DNA of 64,000 nucleotides, from the NCBI GenBank assembly GCA_964187785.1, contig OZ076409.1, positions 62,746,001-62,810,000 on the forward strand, written 5' to 3'. Numbering within the stretch: position 1 is the stretch's first letter; the number at the start of each line of letters is the position of its first letter. This DNA comes from Amphiscolops sp. MND2022 (Eukaryota). The position numbers and the translations under genes were made by a program. The notes below the pieces were generated by a model. The model was not told the origin of the DNA and did not search any database. It saw nothing but the letters and a program-made list of their open reading frames with translations. Below are positions 9,587 to 64,000 of this stretch, piece by piece.

Positions 9587-9687
9587 TTTAGTCCGCCGGC
9601 CCGGACTAGAAGAAGAAGACGAAGACGTCTGTTGGTGGACAACTGAGAAATTGCCCAAGAAAAACAAGTGTCTGGATTCTCTGACTT

Positions 9688-9907: not shown

Positions 9908-9942
9908 ACTTTTGGAACTGAGTTTAATCAAAAAGAAAAGAG

Positions 9943-16284: not shown

Positions 16285-16305
16285 GGAGAAAAACAGGGCC
16301 GGCAA

Positions 16306-17252
16306 TGTTGGCGCCAGTCAATTGCGAGATCAGAAACTCAAATTCGAACGTGACTGATGAAACTTACAACTCAAAACACTTAGAAACTTTGTCAAGATTT
16401 GAGTTGGAAAATTCCAAGTTTCAGCAGAAATATGCCTGAGGGAAAAACACCACACCCCTTTTTTGAGAAGCACTTGTCCAATGACCCTGAAACTTAGCAT
16501 GCATATACTAGAGCTGCTAACTAAAGTTTTCACTCGAACCACCCTACCTCGTATCTCCCCTGGGTTCAGAACAATTACCACCCAAAGTGACCTAGGTCGG
16601 ACCCCATGAAAACCCAATTTTGATGTATTAATTATTATGTGATTTTCTCATAAGACCTTGAAGGAAATGTAACTGTGTTAAAATTTATTATATTTAAATT
16701 GTGTAAACACACTTTCAAGCCCACCTAACCAACATGCCAAAACCGCCACATAGTTTGTTTACTTAGCCAATAACTTCATTTTACGCTTTAAATGTCATTA
16801 ATTTATACAAATTATTTCAACTGATATTTGCCTATATTTACTGTAGAATTGTAAACCACATTTATACCATTATTAGAGATAGGTTTTCTTCACGGATTAG
16901 CTACAGTTAAGCTGGGTCTTAGGACCAAAAGATTAGTTAATCAACTTCTCAATCTTCACAACTTTTCGCTAGAGTTAGAGCGACTAAGTACCTACTCTCG
17001 TAGTTGGATAGCCGGAGCGCGTGATGATACAGAGAAGGAAGTTTGTACTGGATCACATCGGATCCACCCTAGTGCAAAGAGGAATCGCAGGCGATTCCAC
17101 GGGTCATACCGGACCCACTAGCTAAAATATACAGTCCTTTAAAACACGAAACCAGGACTTGTTTAGTGACTGTCCACAGCACTAAGCAACGGATCAGGGC
17201 GGCGTAAAGCTTGTCAAGACTCAGCGCAGGATAAGGGCAAGCAGCCGTTACA
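16306..17252 (+). repeat. BEL 3' LTR
   Basis: Copy of 8638-9586, preceded by purine-rich GGAGAAAAACAGGGCCGGCAA. Confidence 0.95.
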
Positions 17253-32891: not shown

Positions 32892-33644
32892 ATGCCGACT
32901 ACTAGAACTGGCTCTCAATCAGACGAAGAGGGGTCCACCCACCTAATCGAATGTACTGGCAAGGGTCCCGACAAGGGAAAGGGATGCCAATCCTGGGTCC
33001 CCACATGGCTCCCGAAAAAGATCCACAAGGGTTTCATGGACCGCCCCTTCCTATGTGGCTTCTGTGCAGCAGCTGAGGTGGCCGACTTGCAGTCCAAACT
33101 TGCCAAAATTACAGAAAAGCCTCAAATCAGCGGAGAGCTGTCCAGTCTTTTCAATGCCGATTCAAACCAGCAATAAGGAAGGCGGGACAATGTCCGCATA
33201 TTTGGGGTGGAGGAGGCACCAGATGAGGACGTGTATCAGGCTGTGATCGATGTGGCAGAAAAGGCGGGATGTCAGGTATCCAGAGCGGACATCAGCATCT
33301 GCCATAGGGTTCCCAGCAGAAATGTGAAGCCTGGCCAAGGGCGCCCTATCATTGCAAAATTTGTAAGGAGACAGACCAAAATCGGGCTGATGACCAACAA
33401 AAAGAAGCTCAAGGATAGTGAAAATAAAATTTATATCAACGATGATCTCACGCTACTACGAGCAAGGTTGGCTAAGGCATTGAGGCAAAGACAAGATGTA
33501 ACTTCTGTGAACATGATTAACGAAAAAAATGTGGTGTATCAACAAAATGATACAAAAACTGTCTTTGATAGCCTCTTCAAATTATATGAATGGGATCCTG
33601 ATTTTGTCTACTCTGTATGCAAAAGTAGTCTACATTTTTGTTAG
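32892..33644 (+). pseudogene. LINE-A ORF1 with one premature stop
   Basis: PHD-like C..CQSWV..FLCGFC; QQ*GRRDNVRIFGVEE (TAA at 33174); DISICHRV..RPIIAKF..IYINDDLT. Confidence 0.85.
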
Positions 33645-38613: not shown

Positions 38614-38644
38614 GCCTAATTGTTGTGATAAACTCATTAAATAG
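38614..38644 (+). other. Spliced-leader-like sequence at the LINE-B 5' end
   Basis: GCCTAATTGTTGTGATAAACTCATTAAATAG, ending 11 nt before ATG 38656. Confidence 0.75.
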
Positions 38645-38655
38645 TTTCCGGTGAT

Positions 38656-39429
38656 ATGACTACTGACGTAGACCCTGAACAACGATCAAGACTGGGTTCC
38701 TGTGACACCAACTACTATCCCACAATCTCTGAGTTGCTGGAAAGCAGCGATCAAGATGTACAGAAGTTTCTAGCCAAAACCAAAAAAGACACTCTAGTGT
38801 GCATTCTACGAGAAGCAATCGCTCAACTCAGGAACAAATCACTATGTCTGATAGCAAATGACATTGCTGAGATCAAAGTTACCCTAGAAAAAGCTGTATC
38901 TGAACAAACACTGTCGTCCCCACAGCCCATGACAGATCTGGACAACGAATCTTCAATTGCCCCAACAGTTAAGATTAGTACAAATTCTCTGAAATCTTCT
39001 GATATTCCTTATAGAAACAAAATTCGTGTCTCTTGTGTACCAGAGCAGAACAGTGACCTTAAAAAATTTGAAAGATCAATGGCGGATAAAGTTAAAGTTG
39101 AACAAATTCTTGAGAACCTGGGCGAGCCCGTTGAAATACGGGACGTTTACCGGAAAGGTGCTTTCAGAACAGATCGCAAAAGAACAATAATTGTTGAACT
39201 TAGTAACCCTTGGGATGTCCGAAAAGTAGTTGGGGCTGCCACCAAAAATAAATTTTTCAAGCAGAGTGGTTTTCTAGTTACATATGATCTCTCTCCCAAA
39301 GATCAAGAAATTGAGCAGAAATTGCTCGCCAAACGTTTTGAATTTTTGAAATCTGGAACAGACAAGAAACGACTCAAAATCCGAGGATTGAAACTCTATA
39401 AAGACGATGTTGAAGTCAAACTGGAGTGA
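38656..39429 (+). CDS. LINE-B ORF1 (257 aa)
   Basis: IRVSCVPE..DVYRKG..RTIIVEL..VTYDLS, typical ORF1 RRM-like layout. Confidence 0.85.
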   Translation: MTTDVDPEQRSRLGSCDTNYYPTISELLESSDQDVQKFLAKTKKDTLVCILREAIAQLRNKSLCLIANDIAEIKVTLEKAVSEQTLSSPQPMTDLDNESSIAPTVKISTNSLKSSDIPYRNKIRVSCVPEQNSDLKKFERSMADKVKVEQILENLGEPVEIRDVYRKGAFRTDRKRTIIVELSNPWDVRKVVGAATKNKFFKQSGFLVTYDLSPKDQEIEQKLLAKRFEFLKSGTDKKRLKIRGLKLYKDDVEVKLE

Positions 39430-42242
39430 CAATCAATTGAACTTTCTATTCTATACGGCAACATGCGGAGTCTCCTATCAGTTCAAAGGCGTCTTCTCTT
39501 TTTAAACCTTGCATTCTTTTACAACGCTGATATCATCTGTGCATCTGAAACTTGGTTTGACTGTAACGTTAAAAATCCATTTCTCGATACCAATTACGTT
39601 GTGGTTGCAAGAGCCGACCGCCAATATGGTTCCCATGGAGGTGTTCTTATTTTGGCCAAAAACTACCTTATGTGCAAAGAAATAAACCTCAATGTGATTT
39701 CGCTACTGCTTGTAGAGTTTGCACCATATCCTCCTCCATACTAATAGCTGTATTCTACAACCCACCTGAGAAAAGCCCATACAGGCTAACAGAAGCATGT
39801 ATTCTGAAAGTTTTTGATGTGTTGAGATGCCATGCAAAAACCCTTGATCAAATGATAATTTTTGGAGATTTCAATTACCCGAATATAGATTGGGAAAGTC
39901 TCACCGCTCCCGAATATGACGGTTCCGATTTTTGCTCTTATCTCTTCAAACATTCATTACTGCAGCTTGTTAGTGAACCCACACATAAATCAGGATCCCT
40001 CTTGGACTTAGTGATTACAAACACAAATAAAAGCCAGATCCGTGAAGTGAACAACAATTATTTCTCTGATCATCGTTGTATCTGTGTGACAACCAATGCC
40101 TCCTTGCTAAAATCTATCTCACCTATCACTGGTAAAGTCCAACAATACAGTTTCGCTCAGGCAATTGTTGAATCTCTTCGTCTATCCTTCGCACAAAACT
40201 TCTTCTCTTACGTTCTTCCACAGAATGAAACTTTTATTCGAAACTGGCTTTTTAATTTCTTCTCTATTCTTAATCAATTCATTCCTAAAAAACGTTCCCG
40301 CAGGCAACAATACCCCCCTTACTATTCCTCCCACAGCATTCACCTATTGAACCAGCTTCGAACTCTACAAAAGAGAAAGGACATGAATCGAGTAGAATCC
40401 AGTCTTCGAGAAAAACTATCAATCTCACTTGAATTAGATACAGTCGTCTTCTTAGAGGCATTCACATCTCACAACAAAACTGGTCTCAACATGTGCTACA
40501 AGCTAATAAAAAGCCTTTCAAATTGTACTGCCATTCCCCTGGAGGTGACATGGGACGAGGCCACAGCCAGTGGATACGATCAAGTTGCAAATTTGTTCAA
40601 TCTGTATTTTGTTTCAGTTTATAACAAATCCAGCAAACAGAAAGTATTCGAGCAACCTGTTGAAAACGGCCTTGATTCTTTGGAATTCACCCAGGAAGAA
40701 GTCTCCTCTGCATTGAAAAATGCAAGTAGTGGGAACGGTCCAGACAATATTCCCGGTAAACTCCTCCAATGCCTGGCAAATGAGCTTTCGCCTCATGTGA
40801 CCGTTTTATTCAACCACATTTTAAAAACTGGCATTTTTCCTAAACAATGGAAACAATCGTATGTTACCCCGCTCTATAAAAAAGGAAATCGAAATTGTGT
40901 TTCCTCCTATCGTCCAATCAGTAATCTCAGCAAGCTTTCTCTAGTCCTGGAGCGCTTAGTGTTCGATAAATTATATCAATTTGTTAAAAAAGCAATATCT
41001 TCTCAACAGTATGGCTTCATGAAACGCAAATCAACTACTTTACAACTTCTCGACTTTGTGATGGATGCATACCGCTGTAATGATATTAAAGAAATCAAGT
41101 ACACACTATACGTGGATTTTGCAAAGGCATTTGACAAAGTCTCCCATCCTATCCTGCTTGAAAAACTCCATCGCTTCGGAGTCTGTGGACATTTGTTACA
41201 ATTCTTCAGGTCTTACTTATCCGAAAGATACCAATGTGTGAAAATACACGGTCTGTTATCCTCAGCTCTGCCAATAACAAGTGGTGTACCCCAGGGCTCC
41301 ATTTTGGGCCCGCTACTGTTTATCATTTTTATAAATGACCTTCCTGATTCAATTCAATCGAGTTATCTTAGAATGTTTGCTGACGATACTAAAATATCAA
41401 ACACCAACATTTTAGCTCTAGAACAAGACGGAAAAAATCTTGTACACTGGGCCTCAAAGAACGAAATGATGTTCAATACTGACAAAACAGTCATTTTCTC
41501 AGTTCCCTACTGCGAAGCGGAAACATCGTTCAATGATTTCAGGCTATCAACATCTAAAGTCTGTAAAGTTCTTGGTCTCTATCTCACACCAGAACTATCT
41601 TGGGATGAACATTTAAAAAGAAAACTGGGCCATCTGAACAGCCTGTTGATTCGGCTCAAACGTGAATTACCAGTCTCGGTTGGATCCCAAGTTAAAATGG
41701 TTCTTTTTAAATCTTATTTTCTGTCTAGTTTACTCTATAATTCACAGATATGGTATCCCAGTCAAAAAATGCTTGACAAATTAGAATTGTTTCAGAAACG
41801 AGCAACTCAATGGATACTTGATATCAAAGACTATCACCAACGCCTTAGAGCTTTGAAGCTGTTTCCCATCTCGTATCAACTTCAGGTGGCTGACCTCACG
41901 TTCCTCAACAAGCTTCTCAACGAGCGCTATGAAGTCGATGTCTCAACTATTATTAATACCAAACGGCCCTCAGCCTATGACTTACGAATAAACAATCTGA
42001 GTCTCTTTGAAAAACCTGAAACCCGGTTAAATAAAACTGATGAGCAATTCCGAATACGTGCCTGTATCATGGCTAATCGCTTAGAAAAGGTACATGGAAT
42101 ATCAGTCTTCGAACCAACATCGACATTCAAATTGAAACTTGACGTTTTAGTCTCTAATCTGCTTTCGTGCTATAATACATTATCAAAATGTAACCAATTT
42201 TTAATATGCACATGTAAAAATTGTTGCCTGCTGAATCTTTAA
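39430..42242 (+). pseudogene. LINE-B ORF2 (APE + RT) with a single frameshift near 39690
   Basis: YGNMRS, CASETW, HGGV, GDFNYP, LLDLV, SDH; SYRPIS, DFAKAFD, PQGSILGP, FADD; Cys-rich end. Confidence 0.92.
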
Positions 42243-47159: not shown

Positions 47160-49823
47160 CACTTTAAGATTTTACCATCCAATTATCTTGCAAGCGGAGC
47201 AAAAAATTCTCCTGTGTTGTTCGTATAATTCTCCTTCCTTGAATAAATACAATTCCTTAAACGATATCGATGCAATCCCTAGTTGAACAATCATACCGAA
47301 AAAGCAATAATCCTTGGGAGTATGAATTTTTACCTTCTGAAGAACACGTCATCCAATTTGAAAAATACAAATGTCCTGATGAGCAATGGTTATGTTCAGT
47401 TGGTTAAAAAACCAACTAGAGATATTCAAGGGTTTGCTTCCCTGATCGATCATGTAGTAGAGAAAAACTTTGATTCAACCTTTTTTGAGAGTGAAGTTTT
47501 GAAAACAGGTATCACTGACCATTATGCGACTTTTGCAAAGTTTCCTATCATCGTTCCCAAAGAAAAACCGCTCCTGAGGAGAGATTTTAGTTTCATCAAG
47601 AAAGAAAGTCGTGGAGCTTTATTCCTTTCAGCTTTGGAGAAGAATTTCGAGAATTTCTCATTGACTTCAGATCTAAATGCAGGAATGGAGAACTTCATTT
47701 CAGTCACCATTGAGAGTATGGACTATTCCAGCAAGCTCAGGTGCATAAGTCGAAAACGTTTGAAACCTCCTTGGTATGACAATCATCTGAAAAATCAAAT
47801 ATCTAAACGGAACCTTTTTTAAACCGTTATCTTAGCAATCGTACGTGTGCAAATTTTGATGCCTACAGAAAATTTCGAAAGTCAAATTACTTTTGTCCAA
47901 CAAAAAACAATATTGTAATCAGATATTCTCCAGTTCCCTCTGGGATAAACAGTCTTTTTTCCGTAACTTGAATAACGTATTAGGTAGAAGATATAAGAAG
48001 TCACGGATTTCCTGTCTCGTCATAAAAGGAGAAGAAATAACAAACGACCAGATAGTTGCGAATAGTTTAAATCAACATTTTCTTCGTCGGTTAACAAGCT
48101 CTCACCAACGTCAATTCAGAACCCATTACTATCCTTAACCAGATCGAAGGGACCCCTTCTTATGCTACTTGAATCCAACTAATGTGGTCGAAATCAATAC
48201 AATCCTAAAAAACCTCAGGGATAAATAATCAACTGGCGTAGATGGCATGCCATCTGAAGTCTTGAAAGCCAGTAGCACTGTGATAAGTCCTATTTTAGTA
48301 AAATTGAATAAAATCATACCTTTATTCAAATCAGGGGATCCATGTGACTTGAACAATTTTTGGCCGATTTCAATTCTTAGTTATTTCTAAAGTAATCCAA
48401 CTTGTCTTCCACAATCGAATATACAGGTTCCTAGAAAAATTCGACCTCTGTGAGTCTCAATTCAGATACCGCTGTGAAAGGTCAACAGTTGGTGCAATTG
48501 CAAGCATAACGGAATTGCTTAGAGAGAAAAGTTTCAAATCTGGATCCAAATGTGTATTCCTAGTTTCAACTAAACCTTTTGACACTATTGACCATGGAAT
48601 TCTATTAGCGAAATGTATCGACTGGGAATGCGTCATAACGTTCTGAATTGGTTTAGATCATACCTCTCAGACAGAAAACAGTTCGTTGTAGTCAATGAAG
48701 TAGAATCAGCAATCAAGATTTTGAATGAAGGTGTCCCTCAAGGTTCATTAGTAGGCGCAGTCCTCTTTATCATATACATGAATGATTTAAGTGAGTTTTG
48801 TTTCCAATCAAAGCCGACGTTTTTTGCAGACGATACGACTCTTACTGGTTACTTCACCGAATAAAGATCTGAATAAAATCATGCTAAAGGAATTGAAAGT
48901 AGTGAACGAGTGGTTAGCTACCGATAAGCTATGCCTGAATGTGGGCAAAAAATGCGTATCTTTCAAAATCGAATCTCTCCAGAATCTTGTTCTAGATGAA
49001 ATGGAAATTCAAGAATGTAAAATTTTGAAATATCTAGGCGTTCACATCGATAAAGAACTGAAATTCGTAGATCACATCTATTCTCTCAAGAAGAAACTGT
49101 CTAAAGCTGTGGTCATTGCGTCGCAATTGCGGTGTTTTGTATCTTGTGATGTTTTACTCATATATTACAACTTCTATGTGAAACCAATTTTGCAATACGC
49201 TATCCTTGTTTATGGTTGTACGTACATTACACATCTCAAAAAAATTGCACTGATGCATAGAAAGCTCTTACGAATAATATTCTTCAAGCGAAAAACCATG
49301 AGTATAGAGTCGGAGGTGATAAATGCACATATTCTTAGCGTGCCTCAACTTTACGTTTATGAATTCATCAAATTCGCTTTTAGAAGCGTTAGAAAAGAGG
49401 TATCGAGTGATTATCTGAACAATCTTTACACAAAAGCAAACAGCAATCGTTGTTCTGAAATCTATGGATAAACCTTATTTTCAATTCCCTCATTCATCTA
49501 AGAACTGGGAAAAGCACTCATTACGCTATCGAGGTACAACGGTACTGAATTTTTTGATAGACGAAGGGTTGTTTCCGAACGATTTATTTGAAATGACTGA
49601 TTGGTCTCTTATTGATAAAATTCACTGCTTGAAATATTTCTTATTGCTAATACCTGATGATACATTGTTATTTTCCGACCCCACATTTTACAAATGGGGG
49701 AGGAAAATTATGATCTGTGATGCGTTTTTTTCCAAGTTTTACCAAATCTCCACAATCTCCATCTTTTGATTACTTGACTATTACTTGACTTGATGAAGAT
49801 AATTCAAGTCTTCTCTCTCTCTC
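47160..49823 (+). mobile_element. LINE-C: decayed, 5'-truncated relative of LINE-A
   Basis: YNSPS, SLIDHV, ITDHYAT, PQGSLVG, FADD, YLG, KPILQYAILVYGCT, SLRYRGT; (TC)n tail. Confidence 0.9.
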
Positions 49824-51706
49824 AAATTAAAAATGGGAATAAGATCTGAAGGGAATAAGATCTAAAATTTCAGGACGGGAATAATATCTAAAGGGAAGAA
49901 GATCTGATATCACTAGGTTTTAGATCTTATTCTTTAGATCCTCTTCCCCCTCCCAAAATAGCTATGGTTCAGTTTGTGAAGGCGGACAGGTCGGAAAATA
50001 TCCCGGTGCTTAGCGGGCTTCTTGTTTTCGATTATTAATTAACTGTTTCTAACTCCCCGTAACTTTTAGTAAGACTTGACCTCTCGTCGAAGGGATCAAG
50101 CTGAAAGTTACGTGGACGGGAGTTTGAAAAATTCCGTGTGTGGCTGGTTTTCCGGTGATGGTCACTGGACCCTCCATGCACTCGACATTGACGACGATTA
50201 CGATGTTCCCGAGCGCCATTGCGGAACCCAAGAAGTGGTAGAAGCAGCCGAACGAGGAAGTACCTTTGAATTTACTTTGTATTATTTTTATTTCTGAATT
50301 TAACTTTTTAAAACCGTTTTTCTCAACAAGCTGTAGGCTATTATAAGGTTTCCTAAGTTTACTTTTTTTTTCTTTTAAAGGAGCTGAGTTTTTTTTGACA
50401 CTGAATGTGTCGTTTCAGATCCTCTTTGACCTTGCTACTCCTTTCGTTAACCGATAAATACCGTTAATTGACAAATAAAAAATTGCACTGATGCATAGAA
50501 AGCTCTTACGAATAATATTCTTCAAGCGAAAAACCATGAGTATAGAGTCGGAGGTGATAAATGCACATATTCTTAGCGTGCCTCAACTTTACGTTTATGA
50601 ATTCATCAAATTCGCTTTTAGAAGCGTTAGAAAAGAGGTATCGAGTGATTATCTGAACAATCTTTACACAAAAGCAAACAGCAATCGTTGTTCTGAAATC
50701 TATGGATAAACCTTATTTTCAATTCCCTCATTCATCTAAGAACTGGGAAAAGCACTCATTACGCTATCGAGGTACAACGGTACTGAATTTTTTGATAGAC
50801 GAAGGGTTGTTTCCGAACGATTTATTTGAAATGACTGATTGGTCTCTTATTGATAAAATTCACTGCTTGAAATATTTCTTATTGCTAATACCTGATGATA
50901 CATTGTTATTTTCCGACCCCACATTTTACAAATGGGGGAGGAAAATTATGATCTGTGATGCGTTTTTTTCCAAGTTTTACCAAATCTCCACAATCTCCAT
51001 CTTTTGATTACTTGACTATTACTTGACTTGATGAAGATAATTCAAGTCTTCTCTCTCTCTCAAATTAAAAATGGGAATAAGATCTGAAGGGAATAAGATC
51101 TAAAATTTCAGGACGGGAATAATATCTAAAGGGAAGAAGATCTGATATCACTAGGTTTTAGATCTTATTCTTTAGATCCTCTTCCCCCCTCCCAAAATAG
51201 CTATGGTTCAGTTTGTGAAGGCGGACAGGTCGGAAAATATCCCGGTGCTTAGCGGGCTTCTTGTTTTCGATTATTAATTAACTGTTTCTAACTCCCCGTA
51301 ACTTTTAGTAAGACTTGACCTCTCGTCGAAGGGATCAAGCTGAAAGTTACGTGGACGGGAGTTTGAAAAATTCCGTGTGTGGCTGGTTTTCCGGTGATGG
51401 TCACTGGACCCTCCATGCACTCGACATTGACGACGATTACGATGTTCCCGAGCGCCATTGCGGAACCCAAGAAGTGGTAGAAGCAGCCGAACGAGGAAGT
51501 ACCTTTGAATTTACTTTGTATTATTTTTATTTCTGAATTTAACTTTTTAAAACCGTTTTTCTCAACAAGCTGTAGGCTATTATAAGGTTTCCTAAGTTTA
51601 CTTTTTTTTTCTTTTAAAGGAGCTGAGTTTTTTTTGACACTGAATGTGTCGTTTCAGATCCTCTTTGACCTTGCTACTCCTTTCGTTAACCGATAAATAC
51701 CGTTAA
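49239..51706 (+). repeat. 1.24-kb near-perfect tandem duplication
   Basis: 49239-50467 repeated at 50477-51706 with 9-nt filler TTGACAAAT; covers the LINE-C 3' end plus flank. Confidence 0.95.
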
Positions 51707-51999: not shown

Positions 52000-53117
52000 T
52001 GCCTGGTGTCATGTGTTCCATGATGATCTTCTTGACCGAAAACAGAATATCAAAATTGAGAAGGAATATCTTGAATGCCTACCAATGACCTTTTATTTAT
52101 ATAAATATAAACATACAAGTTGAAACTATTTGACTTTGACATTTAAAACTATTTGACATTTATTGAATACTTCACCAACTGAGAAAAGTAATTTTATAAT
52201 CAGAAGAACGAATAATACAGATAAAGAACAGTTTAGTTTTCCTAACCAAAAAGTGGATTGCGTCCCAAGCATCTTAGACTACCGCTCGACATCTTCTGAG
52301 GAATCGTCTTGAGAGAAGTGACAAAACCAAGACTCTGAAAATAAGAGTTATGACTTGGTGACAGGAGTACAACAATCCACAAGAAAATGCTACATATTAC
52401 TAATCTTTTCTTCGTCGAAAAGGAAAACACAGGCCACGCCCAGACGACCACTGCTCAGCTGCACATCCACGTTCACATCCAGTTCCACCGATGATGAAAC
52501 TAAAACAACAGTGGCCGGCAGTATCTTGCTAACTACAAACACTACAAATTGCGTTTTTCTACAAGACGTTGTTTCAACTCCATTTTTCCATTCTACTGCC
52601 AAGTGTAAAGGCTTCAAGAACATGCGTTTGATGCTGATATTTGACAACAAACAATGATGTATTCCTTGGAACAACTTTTGGAATGGATGATGAAATCCAC
52701 TTTGGAATGGATGATGACTTCACAACTTTCAGCTCCAATTCGATTGGTGAGTTTAAAGCCATTTTGATGTGGTAAATTGATAATGATGTTCTTTTAACGC
52801 CTCACTGTCTGATCAGACTGATTTCATTTTACAAAATAGCACATTTTCATTTTCAAAAATTACAAAATTTGGCAAGGTACTGAAACTGCCAGTTCATTCA
52901 TTTCTGTTTGAAGCATCTGAACTCCCTTTCTTCTTCTAACACATTATAATCGTTACAAGACTTTCGGAAATTTTCATTTGATTCTACTGTTCTGAGATTC
53001 AACTTTGAATTTTCCTTTTCTCGAAATTTTGTTTTTTTTTCTTCTTTTGAAGAAATCCTACTTTCTTAATCTAAACCTTAACATATTGTTTTCTCTTATT
53101 GTCACTTCACGTAAATT

Positions 53118-54402
53118 ATGGCTCAACCTCAACTAACTCTCACTCCTTATTCAGGTACGGAAAAAGAATTTTCGCGAATTCGAGCATTTGCTCAGAAGCA
53201 TTCTTGCGGTCGCTGCGGTTCCAGCGAATCAACAGGCGAATTTTTTACAATTGCATCTTCGTGACGCAGCTCTACGTTATTTTCAAACTTTGCCCTTGGC
53301 AACCCGCCAAGATCTAGAACTTTCGATTGCTGCTTTACGAAATCATTTCTGTAATCCACAACTACAAGAAATTCACGTTTTGAAACTTGAAAATCTTAAA
53401 TTTGATGCCAAAACAGACAATCCGGAAAACTTCTTAGTTACATTACAAACTAAAGCGTTTAAAGCGTATCCGGATCCGAATCCACCAGCAGTCGCACCAA
53501 TTGATGCCGCAGCTCCCGACGCTGCTGTTGAACAAACACGCTTCGATCAGGATACTGCTCGACGTGCTGAACTAATACGATCCGCGCAAGAAGCTAGAGA
53601 ACATCAAATCCGACGACAATTTATAAAAAACATGCCGGGATGGCTACGGGCAAAGCTCCTAGAACAGCCGGAAAACACAACAGTGGACGATTTATGTATT
53701 TTCGCACGTAAACAATTGTCTATACATAATCTTTGCAAAACAGATGATTCTGTTATGGACGCCTTTAGTGAAATGGGTCCTTCAGTGACTGATACACTAG
53801 TAAATGCTTTAACAAAATTGAGTACAAGCCAAGAGGCAATGGACAGTCGATTAAATGAGATGTCCAAACAAATGGAAGAGCGTAATACTTCTTTTACGAA
53901 TCAGTTGGAAGCCTTTACTAAAAACCAAAACGAACAGTCTCAGAGAGGCTCGTATTCCCAAAACCGTGGTCAAAATTCTAACTACCGAGGCAATCGCGGT
54001 AATTACAGAGGTCGCTACCGAGGAAATAACAGAGGCTATCGTGGACGTTCAAATTATCGTGGAAACCGCGGTAATTATTACCAAAATTCCTCATCACAGT
54101 ACCAGTCGCCTCAAAATTTCAACAATAATTTCTCAAACACTCAGTTTGATACGAATTATAATCAGACGCAAACTTCGAATGCCCATTTTCAGAATCAAGG
54201 CCAACAAAATTCGAACTCTCAACAGCAAGCGACTTTTGAAGTATTCACTCCAGACTCTAACTATATGCCATATACGCAGCAGTCCTCGATTACGTGCCAC
54301 AAATGTGGTTATCCAAATCATCTGGCACCAAATTGCACTTTGAAAGGGCCAGCTCCACGTCGAGGGACACAAAATCCTTTCAATCAGACTCCAAAAAACT
54401 AA
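53118..54402 (+). CDS. gag: Gag (frameshift near 53170), RG/N/Q-rich region and CCHC knuckle
   Basis: MAQPQLTLTPYSGTEKE / FREFEHLLRSIL..LHLRDAALRYF; CHKCGYPNHLAPNC. Confidence 0.9.
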
Positions 54403-57400
54403 TAACGCAGCACAAGAATCCGCCCTCTGAACTTACAAACAATGTCCAGACTAAAAAGCCAGATACATGTAATGACGAACACTATAATGAATTGCCAGAA
54501 ATGTGCGCAGTACTCCCCTTAGAAGGAGAAAATTTGTTATATGTACGTTTAAAATTTACCTCTGACCTTAAGCGTAGAGCTTTAATTGATACGGGCTCTT
54601 GTGCTAATGCAATACCAGAATCAATTTTTTTAGAACTACAAACTAATATTCCAAACCAGATAGTCATGGAAGATCCTTCCTTCACCTCAGTACGGATGGC
54701 ATCAGGCCAGAAAGTTACTATCAAAAAACAAGCAAAAATATCTTTCAAAATTGGAACACATACGTTTCAAGATAGTTTTCTTATCTTGCCGACGATGAAT
54801 AGCGCTATCCTTGGAAATCCTTTTTTCAAGAAATATAACATAACAATTGATCCTCGGCACAACCTTTTACACTTGCCTGATTTAACGGTTCAACTTAACC
54901 AGATTCTTCCGGAAAAGGGACAAAAATCAAAATATACAAAAAAACTACCTAAACTACCGCTTTTACTCCAAAAAAAAGTATGCATCCCGCCTCAAACACA
55001 AGCACTTCTGGAGTGTCAGTTCGATGAAAACTTTGAAACTTATAAAAACTGCACGGGACTGGTAATTCCTAGTGATCGCTTAGAAGATAAAAGTGGCATT
55101 GTCCTCACGTCGTCACTCAGTACGATAAATGATGACGGAAAAGTCGTTCTTTCAGCAATCAATTTTTCTGATAACCCGATTACACTCAATAACAAAACAG
55201 AAATCGCTCATTTCGAAATTTTAAACGAAACCGAGGCAGATGACCTTATTGCCATTGATCCGACTTTGCTTTCGCTAGCAAAATTACGCAATCCGGATGA
55301 TTTTGCGGGAGAACTGAATCAATTGATTCAGGACTTCCATTTTCAGAAAATTGATACGCCAACAGGCCGCCCGCCGCCGGATTATTCAAAACTCTGGTTT
55401 CCAACGCCGGAGACTTGCACCGACTTTTCTACATTGACTCCTTTGCAACGCGAAATATATGATCAAATTTTACAGCTTCAACGGCTCGAAAAAATGAAAC
55501 CTACAGAAAATTCTCATGATCGGCGCGAATTTTTGAAAAAGTTTTCGTGGGACACTTGTGCCCTTAATAACGACCAAAAGGAGGAATTGGAAGAATTTTT
55601 GGTTGAATACCACGATGTGTTTGCCAAACACAGATTTGACGTGGGATATAATACCGAATTAAAGATCAAATTAACTCCTGAACACCCACTTCCTGTGCAT
55701 GTTCAAGGTCCGCCTACTCCAATCCACCTACGCGATGAACTCTTGGTTGAACTGGCATTATTACAATATTTTAACATTATAACAACTCTTTCACATTCCA
55801 AATATAGTAGTCCTATATTTGTTCATCGCAAAGCATCAGGAAAAATGAGAATTCTTATTGACTTGCGCCGTGTAAACCATTTGCTACGCCATGACTATGT
55901 AAATAGCAATTTTCCGATATCAAATATGACAGATGCCACAAATCATTTTGCGGGCAAGAAATTGTTTTGTAAATTGGATTGTTCACAAGCCTATCATTGT
56001 GTACAAATGGCTGATGACCTCTCAGTTCAGCTTTTGGCTTTTAACTTCGCCTCTCGTACTTTCGCCTACACATGCCTAGCACAAGGTCTCAACAAATCTG
56101 TCACGGGCTTTAGCTCTTTTGTCAAGCATTATTTAGATCCATGCTTAGCGGCAAATATCTGTACCCAATTCATGGATGATATTGCTGCAGGAGTTAATGA
56201 ATTTGATGAACTAATCCCAGTTTTACGAAAAATTTTTGATTGTCTTAGAACATCAGGCTTGAAACTTTCGGCACATAAATGTGAATTTGGAACGACCAAA
56301 ATTAATTACCTAGGCAGTACAATTACTCCGAAAGGTATCTCGCCGGAAAGTGAAAAAATTCAAAAATTTTTGGATCAGATTCGCATGCCAACCACAGTTA
56401 AACAAGTAAAACGTCTTATCGGATTTGTCCAGTTTTTTCGAAATTTTATGCCAAATCTTGGAGACAAATTGCTTCCTTTTTATCGCCTTCTTCGGAAAGA
56501 TACTACATTTACAATCACCAATGATCACCATGAATCGCTTGAAATTTTAAAATCTGACTTAAGTCGCGCTACTAATTTAACATTGAGATTGGCAAAACCG
56601 GGTCTCCAGTACGTAATTCTGTGTGATGCCAGCTACCATGGTACAGGTTTTGTACTCATGATTGAGGACTACCTTCAGGATCAGCATGGAAAAGAGAAAA
56701 AAACATACGCGCCGGTCTCTTTTGGCTCCCGCCTTTTTACGGCCACGCAATTGAAATTTTCTGTGTACTTCAAAGAATTTCTCGCCCTATATTTTGCCTT
56801 GGATCATTTCTCACATTTTATTTGGGGCGCCACTAAACCTGTCCTAATTCTTACAGATAACCGCAGTCTTACACAATTTTTCCAATCCAAAACTATACAT
56901 CCATCATTATGGAATTGTCTCGATCGAGTTCTGTCATTTAATATTCTTCTCGCGCATATTCCAGGTAAAGCTAACTCAGCGGCTGACTTTCTCTCCCGTA
57001 TGCAAACTGATCCTAGCCTGAGCATACAGATTAAACTAACGGATCATGTCCCTATACGCGAAATTGAAATTGAAACAGCTGCTAAAACTCCGGATGTTGC
57101 ATTATCAAATATTGAAGCCGTATCTTCTTTTCCCGATGAGCTGCCTGCCTTAGATCAAAATTTTCTTAATCAATTGAAAATACATGGTCTCTATGATCAA
57201 TTTTTAGCAAAACAGCCCGCGGATGTTCACGATGTCATAGTACATGGACTTTTTTCTTTGAAGCCAGTACCACAAATGAATTTGATCGCATCGAATGATT
57301 TCGAAGATGTTTTGAACGACCTACCAGATCGTATACATCCACTGAATTTGAAAGAAGAACAACGCAAAGATGAAGTAATTACGGAAGTTTTTACGTGGCT

Positions 57401-57848
57401 CCAGAATGGTAAACCAGATGAATCCCTTCATCTTCCGATTGCGCTACGTAAATACCGCAAACAATTCAATCGCCTAGAAGTTCGGGATGATATTCTATAT
57501 CGTCTTTTTTATGATGATTGCGGTAATGTCCAATATCGACAATTTTGCGTGCCAAAACATCTCTGGCGTGAAGTGGTTTTTCGTCTTCACAACTCGAAAA
57601 CTGTAGGCCATTTTGGAATAGCAAAGACTATAGCAGAATTTCGTAAAAGATTCTATTTTCCGAATTTTACTGAATTTTTACTGTCTACAGTCAAAAACTG
57701 CCTAAGCTGTCTCCAATTAAAGCGCGCGCCATCTAAATTTTTGAAACCTCCTTTGCAACCGCTATCGTCCGAAACGTCTTATCCGGGCGAAATGCTCCAG
57801 ATTGACTTGGTGGGGCCTCTTCAGTCCCCCATTATCGATATGTCTTAA
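54294..57848 (+). CDS. pol: Pol: protease, RT, RNase H, integrase zinc finger
   Basis: LIDTGS; YSSPIF..IDLRRVN; LDCSQAY; FMDD; CDASY..KEFLA..TDNRSL..ADFLSR; HNSKTVGHFG..CLSC. Frameshift near 57830. Confidence 0.95.
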   Translation: MPQMWLSKSSGTKLHFERASSTSRDTKSFQSDSKKLITQHKNPPSELTNNVQTKKPDTCNDEHYNELPEMCAVLPLEGENLLYVRLKFTSDLKRRALIDTGSCANAIPESIFLELQTNIPNQIVMEDPSFTSVRMASGQKVTIKKQAKISFKIGTHTFQDSFLILPTMNSAILGNPFFKKYNITIDPRHNLLHLPDLTVQLNQILPEKGQKSKYTKKLPKLPLLLQKKVCIPPQTQALLECQFDENFETYKNCTGLVIPSDRLEDKSGIVLTSSLSTINDDGKVVLSAINFSDNPITLNNKTEIAHFEILNETEADDLIAIDPTLLSLAKLRNPDDFAGELNQLIQDFHFQKIDTPTGRPPPDYSKLWFPTPETCTDFSTLTPLQREIYDQILQLQRLEKMKPTENSHDRREFLKKFSWDTCALNNDQKEELEEFLVEYHDVFAKHRFDVGYNTELKIKLTPEHPLPVHVQGPPTPIHLRDELLVELALLQYFNIITTLSHSKYSSPIFVHRKASGKMRILIDLRRVNHLLRHDYVNSNFPISNMTDATNHFAGKKLFCKLDCSQAYHCVQMADDLSVQLLAFNFASRTFAYTCLAQGLNKSVTGFSSFVKHYLDPCLAANICTQFMDDIAAGVNEFDELIPVLRKIFDCLRTSGLKLSAHKCEFGTTKINYLGSTITPKGISPESEKIQKFLDQIRMPTTVKQVKRLIGFVQFFRNFMPNLGDKLLPFYRLLRKDTTFTITNDHHESLEILKSDLSRATNLTLRLAKPGLQYVILCDASYHGTGFVLMIEDYLQDQHGKEKKTYAPVSFGSRLFTATQLKFSVYFKEFLALYFALDHFSHFIWGATKPVLILTDNRSLTQFFQSKTIHPSLWNCLDRVLSFNILLAHIPGKANSAADFLSRMQTDPSLSIQIKLTDHVPIREIEIETAAKTPDVALSNIEAVSSFPDELPALDQNFLNQLKIHGLYDQFLAKQPADVHDVIVHGLFSLKPVPQMNLIASNDFEDVLNDLPDRIHPLNLKEEQRKDEVITEVFTWLQNGKPDESLHLPIALRKYRKQFNRLEVRDDILYRLFYDDCGNVQYRQFCVPKHLWREVVFRLHNSKTVGHFGIAKTIAEFRKRFYFPNFTEFLLSTVKNCLSCLQLKRAPSKFLKPPLQPLSSETSYPGEMLQIDLVGPLQSPIIDMS
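54393..54399 (+). promoter_or_regulatory. -1 ribosomal frameshift slippery heptamer A AAA AAC
   Basis: Sits immediately before the gag TAA; pol is in the -1 frame. Confidence 0.8.
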
Positions 57849-59895
57849 CGGCGATCGATGTCTTTACAAAATATCTTTTTGCGGTACCACTAACAAATGT
57901 GCGAGCAGATACTATCGCCCGTGAACTCGTTGGAATCTTTTTTCGACACAGCTATATTCCGGAAACGATTCTTTCCGACTTAGGGACAACTTTTGTCTCT
58001 GAGTTGCTTCATGAATTAATGAAGCTACTAGAAGTCCAGCTAAAACACGCAAGCTTGAAACATCCACAAACTGTAGGGGTTGTTGAACGTTCTCATGGTG
58101 CGCTCAAGCGCATTCTCAAGCTTCAAACAAATGAACAATGGAATGATTGGTATACATACGTCCCTTTAGCCGCTTTCATTCACAATACATCTTTCCATTC
58201 GGCAATAGGATGTTGCCCTACAGTTCTTTTTCATGGACGCGAACTAACTAAACCGTTGGATGTTCGATTCAATAATCGCATGATAGAACGTTTTTCACCT
58301 AACAGTGAATATGTTTTCGCCTTACAGGATGCCATGCACAAGAAGTTTTCAGAAACGAAAGAGAAATTAATGACGATGTACAACAAATACCGCACTTATT
58401 ACGACTACAAAGCAGAGGCAAAACCACTTGGTGCTTTTTCGTACTGCCTCCTTCTCAATCCGCGACTAATGACACAATCTGATTTTGCCAGTAAATCACT
58501 TCCTATTTGGTTGCCGCTATATCGCGTAGAAAAAGTCCTAACCAATTCTAATTACATTATACGTAACGTTGGAACAAATTATACGCAATGTGTACACCGC
58601 ATTCGCCTACGACCGGTAGAACCTCAAGGCCGCGTTGATGACCTTCGAGTCATTGATTTCCAAAATTTCCAGCGCGACCCGTCACTCGGTCAATTCCGAG
58701 GTGAACCGTATATATTTGATGCAAGCATTCCATCACTGCTGGATAATCAACAACCAATACTTGTACCACAGGCTGAACCAGAGGTTCCAGCTCCCGTTAC
58801 GGTGAGCCTTATTTTCACGCCTGCCCCGGCGCTTGTGCCGGTGGCCCCTGTTGCTGGGCCCCCTCCTCCGCCTGTCGCAGCAGCGGGTCCAGTGGTCGTT
58901 TCACCTTCAGACAGTCCCAGCAGTGATAATGAAAATACACGGTCTGATTCGTCAAACGAAAATTTAGCGGTTGATCCAGTCACACCAAACGCATTTTCTG
59001 CCAGTCCAATAGAGCCAGTTGCGGCCGAAGCAGCGGCAACTCCAGATCAACCTACAACATCTCGTAATTTACGCCAACGCTTACATCCGATTTACTATGG
59101 TGAAACTCGTTTCAAAAATGCAAAACAAATACCACAAATGATGCGTTTTCAACCGACTACTACTACGAGTAGCGGCTTAACTCGAACACAGGAACAAAAA
59201 CGTCAATCAATTTTGGATTCTCTAGAGCGACATCGGCAAACAACCAGTCACTCTACTATGATGCAACCATCGGGTCCATCTCCGGCCCCTAGTTCAAGAC
59301 CATTTACGCACTCAGGGCAATCTGAAACGCCACCTGAGTACCTTCGGCGACAAAAGGAAGTAAAAGCACGCTACTCGCTAACGAATTTGAAAAAGCGCTT
59401 GTCAAATAATGATGTAAACGCAATTGTGGCGTCCACAAACTATCCAAAATTCCGTTTTTCTCAATCAAATATTCTATCTACAAATACATCCTTTGCGTAT
59501 TGCGGTTCCTCCGATTTGGCAAATCATACAGGCTTGGCGGCTGCTGTATCGCGACGCTATCCAGCGGTACAAAATCTTCACAAAGTGACTCTTACGAGAC
59601 CCCCACCGGGATCCTTGATTGCGTGTTATGATCATTCTACAAAAAAATTCATCTACAATTTAGTCACGAAACGAAAATTTTTTCATCGCTCTTCCTACGA
59701 TACTCTTCAAATGAGCCTTCTCGCCATGAAGCGCCATATGGAGCGCCATAATATTACAGAAATAGGCCTTCCACGACTTGGTAACGGCTATGATAAACTC
59801 CATTGGCCAACTGTTTTCTCGCTTTTATATCAAATTTTTTTAACTCAAACATTACAATCGTCATTTTTCAGCCTATTCGATCGTATTAAACATTT
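57830..59895 (+). CDS. Integrase core + Pro/Ser-rich linker + C-terminal TARG1/Poa1-like macrodomain
   Basis: AIDVFTKY..SDLG..GVVER..HNTSFHSAIG; from ~59450 FIYNLVTK..SYDTLQMSLLAMKRHM..IGLPRLGNGYDKLHWPTV..LYQIF. Confidence 0.9.
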
Positions 59896-60508
59896 CTCTT
59901 GCCTATCCCTATCGTTTAGCCGCCGCTCCGCCACAAAAACAACCAATTTTTCTTCTCACTTTGCATCAGCCAAATTAACTGCCTCAATGCGACCTTTAAA
60001 TCACAATTTCTCAAGGTCAAAATGTCAGATCGCCAAACCGTACGGGTGAAAGTCTTAGAATTTTATGTAGATTCGATTTCTGACGTCAAATTCTCACTCG
60101 GAGACAAAAAATTTTTTCCGCCTCTTAGTCCGCCATTTTGAATTTTCGCGAAATTGAGTAATTTTCACCAATTTTTTTACATTTTCACATGCTATCTTCT
60201 TTCTGTGCCCCCTACTTCGCTTCCAACACCTTTCCACATATCCAAGCAGCACAATTTCTCACTTCAAAGTGAATTATTTCTTTCTTTTGATGAAATATGT
60301 ACACAATTGATGACGATAATGATCCATTTTCTGTCCGATGAATGAGTTCTACTTTTGAAAGTCGTTTTTACGCCCATCGAGGACGGGCATTTTTCGCCAT
60401 TCGGTCCTCCGGTTCTCCCGGACGTTTATAGGACTTATCTTTCCTATCAACACGACTACAGTTTGACTTCCTCTGACAATTTTGCCCCATTGATTTAGTA
60501 AACAATAC

Positions 60509-61673
60509 TCACTCTTCAATAGGCCAATCACACAAAGGCTCGCAGTGAAAAGCCTTGTAAACTGCTGAGTGCATACACTGTACCAAAAAGGTCTCTCGAC
60601 TGAAGCACTCGGTCTGACCAGCTGAATATCTTATCCAGCCTCTGCCACTTTCATATTGCCAGAACACTAGCAGATCGCACTCTAAGTACATTGCCGTTCC
60701 CAACATCTGAAACTCATCCACATCATTTCATTACATGTTCCAATTTTTCCTGTTTGTTCGTGGCATACACTTACTTACCCACGGTTCTCCCACTGCCATT
60801 TTTGAGGCTTTTGTGGCTTCAATTTCCCAAGGCGATGGGGCATACCCAAGTCGTGTCACACACAACTTGTTGAATTCCTCCGTTCTCATTGTCTCACAAA
60901 TTGATTTTCGCAACCTTTTCAAGTCGTTGGCATTCTGTTTTTTATCTACAAACATCATCATTGCCATGTGTTTAAAGTCATTTCGTGCTTTTATCAGAAA
61001 CCACTATTCTTACCGCTCTTTTTTCCAACGAGCAAATAAAAAATGGTCGCAAACCAGCATTCACCTCCGCCTGCAGCTAGAACTGCTTTACAACTCTTCA
61101 CGGGCGGTTCTCCCAGCCCTATAAATTTACTTCCCACGTAATTGTCTGGAATTTTCACATGGGTGAGACTTAATTTTTCACATACTCGTACACGAGTAGC
61201 CTTTGTTACACATGAGACCTGTTGCCACTCATGCCCCTGGTGGTATGACCAAAAACAGTCAGGACAGTTATGAAGAAACCTAAACGAAACAACAATTGAA
61301 GTCTCAGTTCGTACACTCCATAAAACGACTATATGTCGCCATTCAGGTCGTTTTGCCATACTTACAGCGTGCACGCTCGCTTTAGACCACCTTCATATCT
61401 TGGTAGAGCAAAGCCGCGGTCACTTAACTCTTTTTGCAACACTTTTCTGTCTCTCACATGCCCCTTGCTGGTGATGTGTACAGGTTGCAACACCTGCTCG
61501 ATCTGTTCGAGGGTTGGAACCTTATACCCGTTCCATAACAGACCCCCGTCGGCGCGTACACTGTACTCCTTAATACGGGCTCTCCATATCACATTTTCTT
61601 TTTCAGTCAGCAGTTCGTCTTTTTCTCCGCTTTTGACCATTTTAAGGATGGCTGCATACATTAATGGCTCCAT
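60509..61673 (-). CDS. Predicted 4-exon antisense gene: HHCC zinc-binding domain + OTU-like cysteine protease (~312 aa)
   Basis: Exons 61673-61366, 61279-61014, 60945-60779, 60706-60509 with GT-AG introns that keep frame; motifs GGGECWF..YLL, LKRLRKSIC, W, FHCEPL. Confidence 0.75.
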
Positions 61674-62610
61674 ATTTCTGAAAACACATTTACTTCAATC
61701 TTTGTTGTATGCCAGTTTATGATTCTACCTTGATATTTGACCTTTCCTGAAAGCGAGTTTACAATTTTGACATTTTCCCTTTAGGTCAACTCTTTGATCA
61801 AATATCCTTTGCATTTGCTTACTAAGCAATTCTTTCTCATTTTATACCAACGTTCGACCGCAGTGGCAACCGATGGGCCTTAACAATATGGATTTTCCCA
61901 TTCAATTCACTTGGCTCTGCCTTAAATTCCAACGATCTTATGATATCATCCGTGTTCAGTTATCTGCGGACTCGTCTATTTTACTTACTTTAACCTCTGG
62001 AGAGGTCCTGTTGATGGCCTATTCTACTCCTCAATGGATTGAATTTACGCTTCTGCTCAATTCGCCGCACTTCGTGGTTCCCCGCTCTCACGGAATACGA
62101 GGAATCATCGCAATCTACAAACTCCGCCGTATTTTACGCACGTGCTACGAAGGACTTTAAAACACAACAATTCGAAGTGCTTATTCTTACATATCAGTAA
62201 CATGCTCTCTCTTATCATATTTTAATTAAGTCTGGTACTGCATGCGATTTTCTCTCTTCTCTCAACAGCGTTCTCGTTAGTTCAATTTTACCAAACAACA
62301 AAACTACTTTGTTTCACTCGTTTTTATGCTGAAATCGTCTTTGACTATTCGCATTCTACCTAAGTTTTTTACTGTGCTCTTTTCTACTTTTTGAGAAAAA
62401 AAAACAAAAAAAACAAAAAACTAAACACTTAAAACAAATTAAACGAGCAGCAAAATAACTCAAATTAACTTATGAGAAGTAACGTCTTTGGTTTTAGTTT
62501 GGGCCATTAACCATCTGAGTAACTGCCTTGGACGGTTTTTCTAGCATTAAGTTTGGCAAATTTTCTAGCTGTCGTGCTCGTTATCTCTCTAATTTTCACA
62601 CTGACGGGCT

Positions 62611-62919
62611 TTACTGTTCTTGAGCATTGCGGAGTCTCCGGTAACATTTATATCCAAAAAATGCACAGCCAAAGAGTATCAGGGGTAACACGACTGTCAA
62701 CCAGGCCAACTGGTCATTGTTCGAACTTTTAACTTTTTGCTTCTCCACTGGTTTTATTTCACATATCACAGGGACAGTAGCACTCCATATAACCTTTCCA
62801 CTGGTTGTCACAAATTTTGTTCCATTTGTGCAGCACCAAAACTTTTTGCCGCGCCACTGGTGCTCTTCACACGAAAAACAAACCATTATGTAAATGGCAA
62901 TCACAACGCACGTTTTCAT
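62611..62919 (-). CDS. Small type I membrane protein (102 aa)
   Basis: Signal-like N-terminus, Cys-containing ectodomain, TM LAWLTVVLPLILFGCAFFGY, basic tail KCYRRLR; TTTTCAG ends 7 nt before the ATG. Confidence 0.65.
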   Translation of the reverse strand: MKTCVVIAIYIMVCFSCEEHQWRGKKFWCCTNGTKFVTTSGKVIWSATVPVICEIKPVEKQKVKSSNNDQLAWLTVVLPLILFGCAFFGYKCYRRLRNAQEQ

Positions 62920-63041: not shown

Positions 63042-63242
63042 CTAATAAGACCTGCATCGGTCAATATTCACATAACACTCTGTTGACATTCTTTCAAATG
63101 ACCGACAAACAAACATTTTTCTCAATAGATCGCGAAAAGTCAATAATTTTCTTTGGTGACTGAACTCTGTCAAATTCTTCCGTGGGTCGATTGATAAATG
63201 CCGACAGGCGTACACAAACAAAAACTGACAAACATTTGACAT
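63042..63242 (-). CDS. Small hypothetical protein (66 aa)
   Basis: ATG directly preceded by acceptor-like TTGTTTTAG-A; no recognisable domain. Confidence 0.3.
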   Translation of the reverse strand: MSNVCQFLFVYACRHLSIDPRKNLTEFSHQRKLLTFRDLLRKMFVCRSFERMSTECYVNIDRCRSY

Positions 63243-63308
63243 TCTAAAACAATTTTGCCATCTCTATCTTCAGGCTCATTTTCTGGTTTGAACCATAACT
63301 GAGCAATC

Positions 63309-64000
63309 ATGCTGTTCTTTCTTGCCTACCTTGCTTTCACTCCTGCTTCCGTTTCTAGTCAATGGTCATCTAACATTGAAGCCTCTAATAACCCTAATGA
63401 TCTTCTAGAAAAAGGGATACTATTTAACGAGCGCAATAAAATCTTGCTTACAGAAAAATTTATCAGTGTGGAATTTCTTGTTCCTTTTCCCACTTATGAA
63501 TTTTCCTTGAAACCGGATATCGAACAACTGCTTCACCGCCTTTCGCAAATGTGGGACTTGCCCTCTATTTTTTGTCCCCTGAACTTCTCTAGTCACTTTT
63601 TATCAAATTCTTCTGGATTCAACGTCAATTGGATGCTCTTTCAAATCAATCATGAGATACACGAATCGGAAACCGACCTAAACACTATCCGGAATGAAAC
63701 CTCAATGTTTTTACGACCACCTTCTGAACAACAACCGCGTAAACGACGAGGCGCTGGTGTAGGCCTCGCTGCCCTGGCAGCTGTTGGACTTTTTGGGGGT
63801 GGTATCGCTATGGGCAGTTCCGACTCTTGTGGTCTTCAAGGAATTTTTGGGGGCTGTCACGATCAAGCCCGAGCCAATGCAGCCAACATACGGAGCCTTT
63901 CAGATTACCAAGATGTTCTGACCCAATTTGTCACAGAATTTCAACTGAACACTGACGAAAAATTCTTCTTAGTGAAAAACGAACTCGCCGCTCTTAATGC
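63309..64000 (+). CDS. env: Env: class I viral fusion glycoprotein, open to the window end
   Basis: Manual translation: MLFFLAYLAFTPASVSS signal; N-glycosylation sequons; furin site RKRR (63738-63749); fusion peptide GAGVGLAALAAVGLFGGGIAMG; heptad-like ANAANIRSLSDYQDVLTQFV. Confidence 0.9.
   Translation, partial: MLFFLAYLAFTPASVSSQWSSNIEASNNPNDLLEKGILFNERNKILLTEKFISVEFLVPFPTYEFSLKPDIEQLLHRLSQMWDLPSIFCPLNFSSHFLSNSSGFNVNWMLFQINHEIHESETDLNTIRNETSMFLRPPSEQQPRKRRGAGVGLAALAAVGLFGGGIAMGSSDSCGLQGIFGGCHDQARANAANIRSLSDYQDVLTQFVTEFQLNTDEKFFLVKNELAALN

Follow-up and report, generated by a model that had tools for sequence, protein, structure and literature searches.

Does the minus strand at positions 60509 to 61673 of the window, the 64,000-nt stretch of Amphiscolops sp. 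MND2022 DNA analyzed here, hold a genuine spliced gene inside an LTR retrotransposon, and what would such a gene encode? A preliminary description of the sequence had joined four short minus-strand open reading frames (ORFs) across three introns and had read the product as similar to an OTU deubiquitinase. We searched the 1.07-Gb genome, which its BEL and env-bearing elements suggest is that of an animal, for copies of the gene. A DNA search returned 30 matches, and protein searches returned at least 150 matches for exon 4 (150 of 254 candidates scored) and at least 126 for exon 1 (150 of 214 candidates scored). The three minus-strand introns had the ends proposed for them, and the four exons they separate lie in one frame. 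The gene in the window is laid out as follows, in the order of its transcription.

61366 to 61677, minus strand: exon 1, with the ATG at 61673, an integrase-like N-terminal extension, and H66 and H72 of an HHCC module
61280 to 61365, minus strand: intron 1, 86 nt, phase 2
61014 to 61279, minus strand: exon 2, with the C108/C111 CxxC, a helix common to transposon OTUs, and the OTU Cys loop (C177 codon at 61059-61057)
60946 to 61013, minus strand: intron 2, 68 nt, phase 1
60779 to 60945, minus strand: exon 3, the OTU helical lobe
60707 to 60778, minus strand: intron 3, 72 nt and so divisible by three, phase 0; other copies range over 62-104 nt
60513 to 60706, minus strand: exon 4, OTU strands and His loop, with H301 at 60547-60545 and E303
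60444 to 60512, minus strand: intron 4, newly found, 69 nt, phase 2, its donor overlapping a TGA
60368 to 60443, minus strand: exon 5, newly found, a 24-aa basic tail and then a stop

Comparison among copies indicated that the exons are fixed and the introns variable, as expected of the spliced antisense gene within an LTR element that had been described. All four exons could be placed in 22 of the 30 loci, the mapping being incomplete in the other eight. Exon 1 measured 308 or 311 nt and exons 2, 3, and 4 measured exactly 266, 167, and 195 nt in 18 of the 22 mapped loci; exon lengths were thus near-constant while introns ranged from 57 to 100 nt. GT..AG ends were conserved in most copies. Gaps were confined to introns in the 14 closest loci (L002-L015), apart from two at exon edges in L006. 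When 19 loci (L002-L020) were compared with the window, third codon positions were the most variable in 18, the first and third being equal in L004; in L011, for example, the differences were 142/313 at third positions and 54/313 and 31/313 at the other two. The dN/dS check that the preliminary description had called for gave 0.07-0.17 in six unsaturated pairs with the window copy, indicating purifying selection; two remoter pairs were saturated. Reading through intron 3 met stops in all 22 mapped loci, and the frame was open in three other loci. An alternative acceptor at 60721 had been thought better for the OTU fit; it is unnecessary, because copies conserve the 60707 acceptor and differ in the intron sequence preceding it. 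A sense-strand gene as the source of constraint was rejected: no sense ORF of at least 150 aa lies over the antisense gene, and stops interrupt the shorter sense frames in several relatives. Judged by these comparisons, from which we infer splicing, the antisense gene is genuine, spliced, and under purifying selection.

The gene had been proposed to end at 60509, with a product of about 312 aa. That TGA overlaps the intron 4 donor, and the gene very probably runs on through intron 4 and exon 5 to give a 336-aa product. A phase-2 GT was present at this donor in 41 of 44 distinct copies, and the unspliced frame past exon 4 continued for 7-58 residues, as against 3-4, in 12 of the 44. After an intron of 65-108 nt, a basic exon 5 of 24 residues with a penultimate Trp was found in 29 of the 44 copies, a count that was not blind, because the choice of acceptor favored such motifs; codon-position differences within exon 5 (116/97/225 in 15 copies) provide an independent check. 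Three divergent copies of the 44 had a 31-residue tail of another type. The pattern of the exon 5 tail, KRP...K-x-x-R/K-P-R-W, is one that we take to resemble a nuclear localization signal (NLS). At the other end of the gene, a splice acceptor lies 4 nt 5′ of the ATG in the window and 4-15 nt from it across copies, without a fixed phase, which points to a possible further intron in the 5′ untranslated region.

The element that carries the gene is a Ty3/Gypsy retrotransposon of about 14.3 kb: LTRs, a target-site duplication, and the pol order of protease, reverse transcriptase (RT), RNase H, and integrase are all present. Its other features in the window are listed here.

52007 to 52355, plus strand: 5′ LTR, 349 bp, with a 5-bp target-site duplication
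53137 to 54402, plus strand: gag, with a weak zinc knuckle (PF00098 E 0.009, under the cut-off)
54261 to 60049, plus strand: pol, with protease, dUTPase-like, RT, RNase H, integrase, and macro-like domain
61873 to 62160, plus strand: conserved 95-aa sense ORF, putative accessory gene, about 200 nt from the OTU gene and head-to-head with it
62611 to 62919, minus strand: conserved 102-aa ORF, by eye a small type-I membrane protein
63303 to 64000, plus strand: env-like ORF, 786 aa from stop to stop, extending past the window

The 5′ LTR is within the window and the 3′ LTR just past its end, at the equivalent of 66000-66348 (L031 4000-4348); the two are identical (350/350, blastn). Since identical LTRs are flanked by a 5-bp duplication, the insertion is recent. 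A second copy of the element, on contig C5, has the same ends and a different 5-bp duplication. The LTR ends at 52007-52355 read TGTCAT...ATGACT, not TG...CA, with 5-bp duplications in two copies. In the window copy, pol is broken into two frames near 57.8 kb. The macro-like domain, at about 59410-59875 (plus strand), forms the C-terminus of pol behind a long low-complexity linker, and Pfam Macro matched it at E 0.002-0.13 in four copies, all under the cut-off. By eye, the env-like ORF has a furin-like site followed by a hydrophobic peptide. Errantivirus-like elements are recognized by an env of the F or gB type after pol; here the 786-aa ORF is present, with zero Pfam or PDB matches.

Two small ORFs accompany the OTU gene. 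The 95-aa ORF was matched in 21 of the 39 loci searched, in some lineages only, and was not found in L005, L008-L010, or divergent lineages; it had no Pfam match and no usable ESM Atlas match. The 102-aa ORF gave tblastn matches in 31 of 39 loci, with a shorter relative in divergent lineages and no match in Pfam. By eye, it has a hydrophobic N-terminus, a Cys-rich ectodomain in which the motif C-x4-W-R-G-x4-C-C-x-N-G-T is kept, a transmembrane helix, and a basic tail, and it loosely resembles the sORF2 membrane proteins of insect elements described in PMC11952523. Two extra antisense frames at 63042-63325 were rejected as genes, their matches being confined to near-identical copies. At L007 (G000:C6:31731224-31735239), which adjoins L006, the accessory block is tandemly duplicated, with two copies each of the membrane-protein ORF and the 95-aa ORF. 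Identity across the accessory region is patchy: L005 and L008 have intron 1 in common, L003 and L008 have intron 3 in common, and a near-identical env start stands alongside a diverged middle (L005 and L008-L010 compared with L003 and the window). This patchwork suggests that subfamilies recombine often.

The gene kept its place across copies of the element. The C-terminus of pol adjoined it in 29 of the 30 loci from the DNA search. We also inspected 20 ten-kb loci picked by hand over the score range. The gene was antisense to integrase in all 20 (one with exon 4 only), and env lay on its far side in 19; two additional loci had the same arrangement. The macro-like domain was present in 15 of the 20 ten-kb loci and missing from the five most divergent. 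These five, whose RT was mostly 46-60% identical, nevertheless retained the gene. No copy of the gene was seen outside such elements among the loci examined. In being conserved as coding sequence, opposite in strand to pol, and located between it and the 3′ LTR, the gene resembles the ORFs classed as aORF-3R.

The product had been described as an integrase-like HHCC finger followed by OTU-like Cys and His loops, and both parts held up. In a set of 25 proteins from stop-free splice models (33-100% identical; 8 of 24 loci tried were left out), H66, H72, and C111 were kept in 25 copies and C108 in 24. C177 was kept in 24 copies, and H301 and E303 in all 25; the HHCC module was conserved to the same degree as the OTU core. 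Pfam found neither OTU nor H2C2 in single Gypsy exons (four window frames and five divergent-copy frames), and the profiles of exons 2 and 4, searched against PDB sequences, returned no OTU. With hhalign, the Gypsy gene matched 21 OTU domains of other records at 98.5% (E 3.7e-15), a set that was collected using the BEL protein discussed below and so is not independent of it. The score was 103, as against at most 17 in 30 column shuffles, and the C-terminal half alone matched the OTU domains at 97.6%. In two alignments with 29 reference domains, C177 stood opposite a Cys in 26, H301 opposite a His in 26-27, and E303 opposite Asp, Glu, or Asn in 24-25. The C-terminal domain is therefore a probable OTU protease, with a predicted triad of Cys177, His301, and Glu303.

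Two other features of OTU enzymes have changed. The Asp of the Cys-loop motif D-x-x-C is not kept, being Gly in 23 and Ala in 2 of the 25 Gypsy copies and Asn in 6 of 8 BEL rows, and the motif W-G/A-x-x-x-E, presumably a ubiquitin contact, is lost in the Gypsy protein. Because of these two changes, the substrate may not be ubiquitin. A search for homologues of exon 1 found none. The exon 4 profile retrieved only four short ENA proteins, 58-86% identical, and no relative among viral contigs.

Further investigation revealed a related gene in a second superfamily. Searching the genome for Pfam OTU yielded nine loci, four of which were an ORF antisense to the integrase of BEL/Pao elements. This ORF had 113 genome matches, fragments counted; it lay antisense directly after integrase in 30 of 30 loci and within LTRs in the three copies checked. 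Its coding part, about 295 aa, occupies a single frame. A donor lies no more than 4 nt past the stop in six of six copies viewed, and an acceptor-like site precedes the ATG in four of four. The Gypsy and BEL gene profiles matched at 97.9% (E 3.4e-13, 248 columns), with a score of 96 as against 29 for the best of 30 shuffles, and the signal was present separately in the N-terminal, middle, and C-terminal parts. Only one of six BEL-borne proteins passed the Pfam OTU cut-off, and Integrase_H2C2 matched L119 at E 0.001. No basic fifth exon was seen in the BEL form, and the tail of the most divergent Gypsy lineage is acidic; nuclear targeting would therefore not be universal.

When the BEL protein was compared with 1.84 billion representatives, 40 matches were obtained. 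The distant ones were Helitron-like OTU domains, one protein labeled Ginger-like from a GPY/F-like motif seen by eye, and P0030. The latter, a public record of 318 aa, carries Integrase_H2C2 and OTU above the cut-off and has no DDE match; as a query it found only itself, metagenome contigs held no relative of it, and the ESM Atlas gave nothing usable. We made a predicted fold for P0008, a BEL-type homologue of the window protein, from an 18-row alignment that includes OTU fragments. The model had a pLDDT of 90 and matched OTUD1 at Z 12.8 (rmsd 3.2, 130 aligned) and, at Z 11-12.5, the OTUs of nairoviruses. For residues 2-105, the matches were to the integrase N-termini of foamy virus (Z 7.6, rmsd 3.0, 79 aligned) and Ty3 (Z 7.2, rmsd 4.0, 96 aligned), both in the weak range below Z 8. 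The model thus suggests that this protein consists of an OTU fold preceded by an integrase N-terminal module. Within the window, the remains of a BEL/Pao element with Peptidase_A17 and integrase occupy 8640-16740; its repeats are spaced by about 7.67 kb, and a tandem array of 24-nt units runs from 9640 to 9940.

The N-terminal modules bear on where the gene came from. By hhalign, those of the Gypsy and BEL genes matched each other at 93.5-94.8%, and P0030 matched BEL at 94-95%, but neither carrier's integrase matched them at more than 7.8%. On this contrast we rejected an origin from the carrier's own integrase. Since the accessory N-termini match each other far better than they match the carriers' integrases, and since Gypsy and BEL/Pao share the module, one ancestral gene is likely. 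Ginger1 transposases, as presented in passages of PMC2836005, have in common with this gene a YPYY-type segment and H2C2 at the N-terminus, an OTU at the C-terminus, and spliceosomal introns, of which Ginger1 genes carry one to four. The antisense gene differs in being a separate gene in LTR elements, without DDE, GPY/F, or terminal inverted repeats. The absence of a DDE core had been noticed earlier and was borne out: no form gave an rve match, and only about 55 residues separate the CxxC from the OTU Cys loop. By eye, Y/F-P followed by aromatics occurs in seven of eight BEL rows (one row lacks the N-terminus), and the Y-P of YPYY is absent from the Gypsy form. Passages of the same source give Ginger1 terminal inverted repeats of 40-270 bp; none of the 19 inverted pairs of at least 40 nt in the window falls in 52-64 kb.

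The earlier suggestion of capture from a Ginger element is plausible. In its favor, the layout is that of Ginger1 minus DDE and GPY/F, and passages of PMC12863088 offer a precedent for core loss from a Ginger1 derivative in the amphipod Imagin. Against it, no Ginger1-type locus with GPY/F plus OTU was found in the genome, in a weak search that scored 106 of 4691 candidates, and an OTU tree (49 rows, 201 columns), whose base was not settled, did not decide between Ginger-like and Helitron OTUs; the Gypsy OTU sat on a long branch. It is plausible that the ancestor was, most likely, a Ginger1-like transposase whose DDE core was lost. By its predicted domains, the present gene is OTU-protease-like and not a member of Ginger1. 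Several loci (L038, L153, L154) and other 2200-2800-aa ORFs of G000 are Helitron-like with OTU domains, and such ORFs are a possible alternative donor of the OTU part. An OTU ORF at L036 (G000:C1676) is on a small contig whose sequence appears unlike the host's and may come from a symbiont or contaminant.

What might the protein do for the element? On balance, we favor a nuclear accessory deubiquitinase that acts against ubiquitin-based restriction by the host. An antisense promoter of its own would drive the gene, and the host would splice the transcript; because the genomic RNA would hold the introns in an orientation that is not spliceable, they could outlast retrotransposition. The basic exon 5 tail would mediate nuclear import, and the integrase-derived zinc module would bring the protein to DNA or chromatin or to the element's integration complex. 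In solved integrases, the N-terminal region contacts DNA and other subunits, which is the reason for assigning the module a targeting role. At its target, the OTU would strip ubiquitin or a ubiquitin-like tag, and removal of ubiquitin would lessen degradation or silencing of the element by the host. More tentatively, and with somewhat less than even confidence, we suggest that Gypsy and BEL elements share a nuclear counter-defense deubiquitinase aimed by an integrase module and kept as a spliced antisense gene, and that in the Gypsy clade this gene stands beside a macro-like domain fused to pol, in a block of three accessory genes resembling that of complex retroviruses. The retrotransposon would then possess the combination of deubiquitinase and macrodomain that RNA viruses have. 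For Helitron deubiquitinases, a comparable protective role has been proposed, namely that OTU protects transposition proteins from degradation (PMC9741609); passages of that paper and of PMC6431247 call transposon OTUs untested.

Other readings explain part of the same evidence. The protein may be an active OTU-fold protease whose substrate is a different ubiquitin-like tag or one particular protein of the host or of the element. The triad is kept while the D-x-x-C Asp and the presumed ubiquitin-contact motif differ, and the OTU branch in the tree is long, as this reading would have it. We nonetheless consider it unlikely, if still worth serious attention, since the closest relatives are transposon OTUs above the Pfam OTU cut-off and polyprotein processing is already provided for: the Gypsy carrier has an aspartic protease region, and BEL elements have an aspartic protease of their own. 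Alternatively, the gene may be a self-regulator whose integrase-like module acts as a decoy: by binding integrase or LTR DNA it would restrict transposition or set its timing. The OTU would then be inactive or secondary, and the antisense RNA might supply a second layer of control. The equal conservation of the HHCC module and the OTU core fits such a role, and the head-to-tail antisense layout invites double-stranded RNA, as discussed for plant antisense ORFs in passages of PMC7264820. However, all three triad residues are conserved in both carrier families, and specific poisoning of the carrier's integrase is less likely because the module is distinct from that integrase's N-terminus; we regard self-regulation as quite unlikely.

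Two further readings appear far less probable. A superficial likeness to OTU, with a different fold in the C-terminal domain, would accord with the lack of Pfam or PDB matches for single exons and with a fold model that depicts a homologue and not the window protein. The profile matches of 98.5% and 97.9% exceed their shuffle controls and the triad residues correspond, which makes this very improbable. The gene could also be a functionless passenger, an internally deleted Ginger1-like DNA transposon inserted in the element, given its Ginger1 layout minus DDE and the introns that Ginger1 genes also bear (passages of PMC2836005). A dN/dS of 0.07-0.17 largely refutes this through purifying selection; the gene also persists in lineages whose RT identity falls to about 50% and recurs in another superfamily, and 52-64 kb contains no inverted repeat of at least 40 nt. 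We consider the passenger reading extremely improbable.

Against known systems, the favored deubiquitinase has likenesses on several sides. OTUD1, OTUD3, and the nairovirus vOTU have the same OTU fold and triad order; here the Cys-loop Asp is changed and an integrase-derived targeting module is added. HTLV-1 HBZ is likewise an antisense accessory gene in a reverse-transcribing element, and is spliced, but it is a bZIP regulator and not an enzyme. The OTUs of Helitrons and Helentrons (P0031, P0036; passages of PMC9741609 and PMC6431247) have the same upstream helix, but the Helitron OTU sits in the giant RepHel of a DNA transposon, whereas here there is a small stand-alone gene with an integrase module. 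The antisense ORFs of Grande (gene23), RIRE2, Retand, PvRetro13, and Boty (brtn) also lie between pol and the 3′ end family-wide, according to passages of PMC7264820, which give Grande gene23 a promoter of its own and a nuclear location; brtn also appears in passages of PMC8365987 and PMC4227169. In PMC7264820 as excerpted, these ORFs come from plants or fungi and lack a clear function. By contrast, the present gene belongs to an env-bearing element of an animal and has four introns in its coding region and a recognizable catalytic domain.

Bdelloid LTR retrotransposons offer another parallel, with ORF3s shared with Terminons as enzymatic accessory ORFs across distant retroelements of one genome (passages of PMC5408684). 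They differ in encoding a GDSL esterase and a DEDDy nuclease from spliced messages, and those passages mention no OTU or antisense ORF. The env-carrying Ty3/gypsy “errantiviruses” (PMC13524379, in the text available) have the same gag-pol-env order and LTRs and likewise occur in many copies in an animal genome; neither that main text nor seven supplementary files use the words OTU, antisense, or macro. Antisense extra genes and transposon OTUs are thus each known. In the literature covered, which left Repbase Reports and most subscription journals outside its scope, we found no description of an OTU gene carried by an LTR element.

The gene encodes a small stand-alone enzyme candidate with a testable predicted active site, selected in more than 100 places and common to Gypsy and BEL. 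If it is active, its substrates would reveal a ubiquitin-dependent step in the restriction of LTR elements by an animal host. It also indicates that a multi-intron gene can survive reverse transcription if it is antisense, and that such antisense genes escape annotation by ORF length and Pfam.

Elsewhere in the window are two non-LTR-like elements, at 33177-36583 and 38641-42242, with long second ORFs (984 and 889 aa) that contain endonuclease and RT by eye. Near-identical direct repeats occur at 3582-8145, at spacings of 0.9-2.0 kb, and at 49239-51484, at a spacing of 1.24 kb; both sets are either recent tandem duplications or assembly duplicates.
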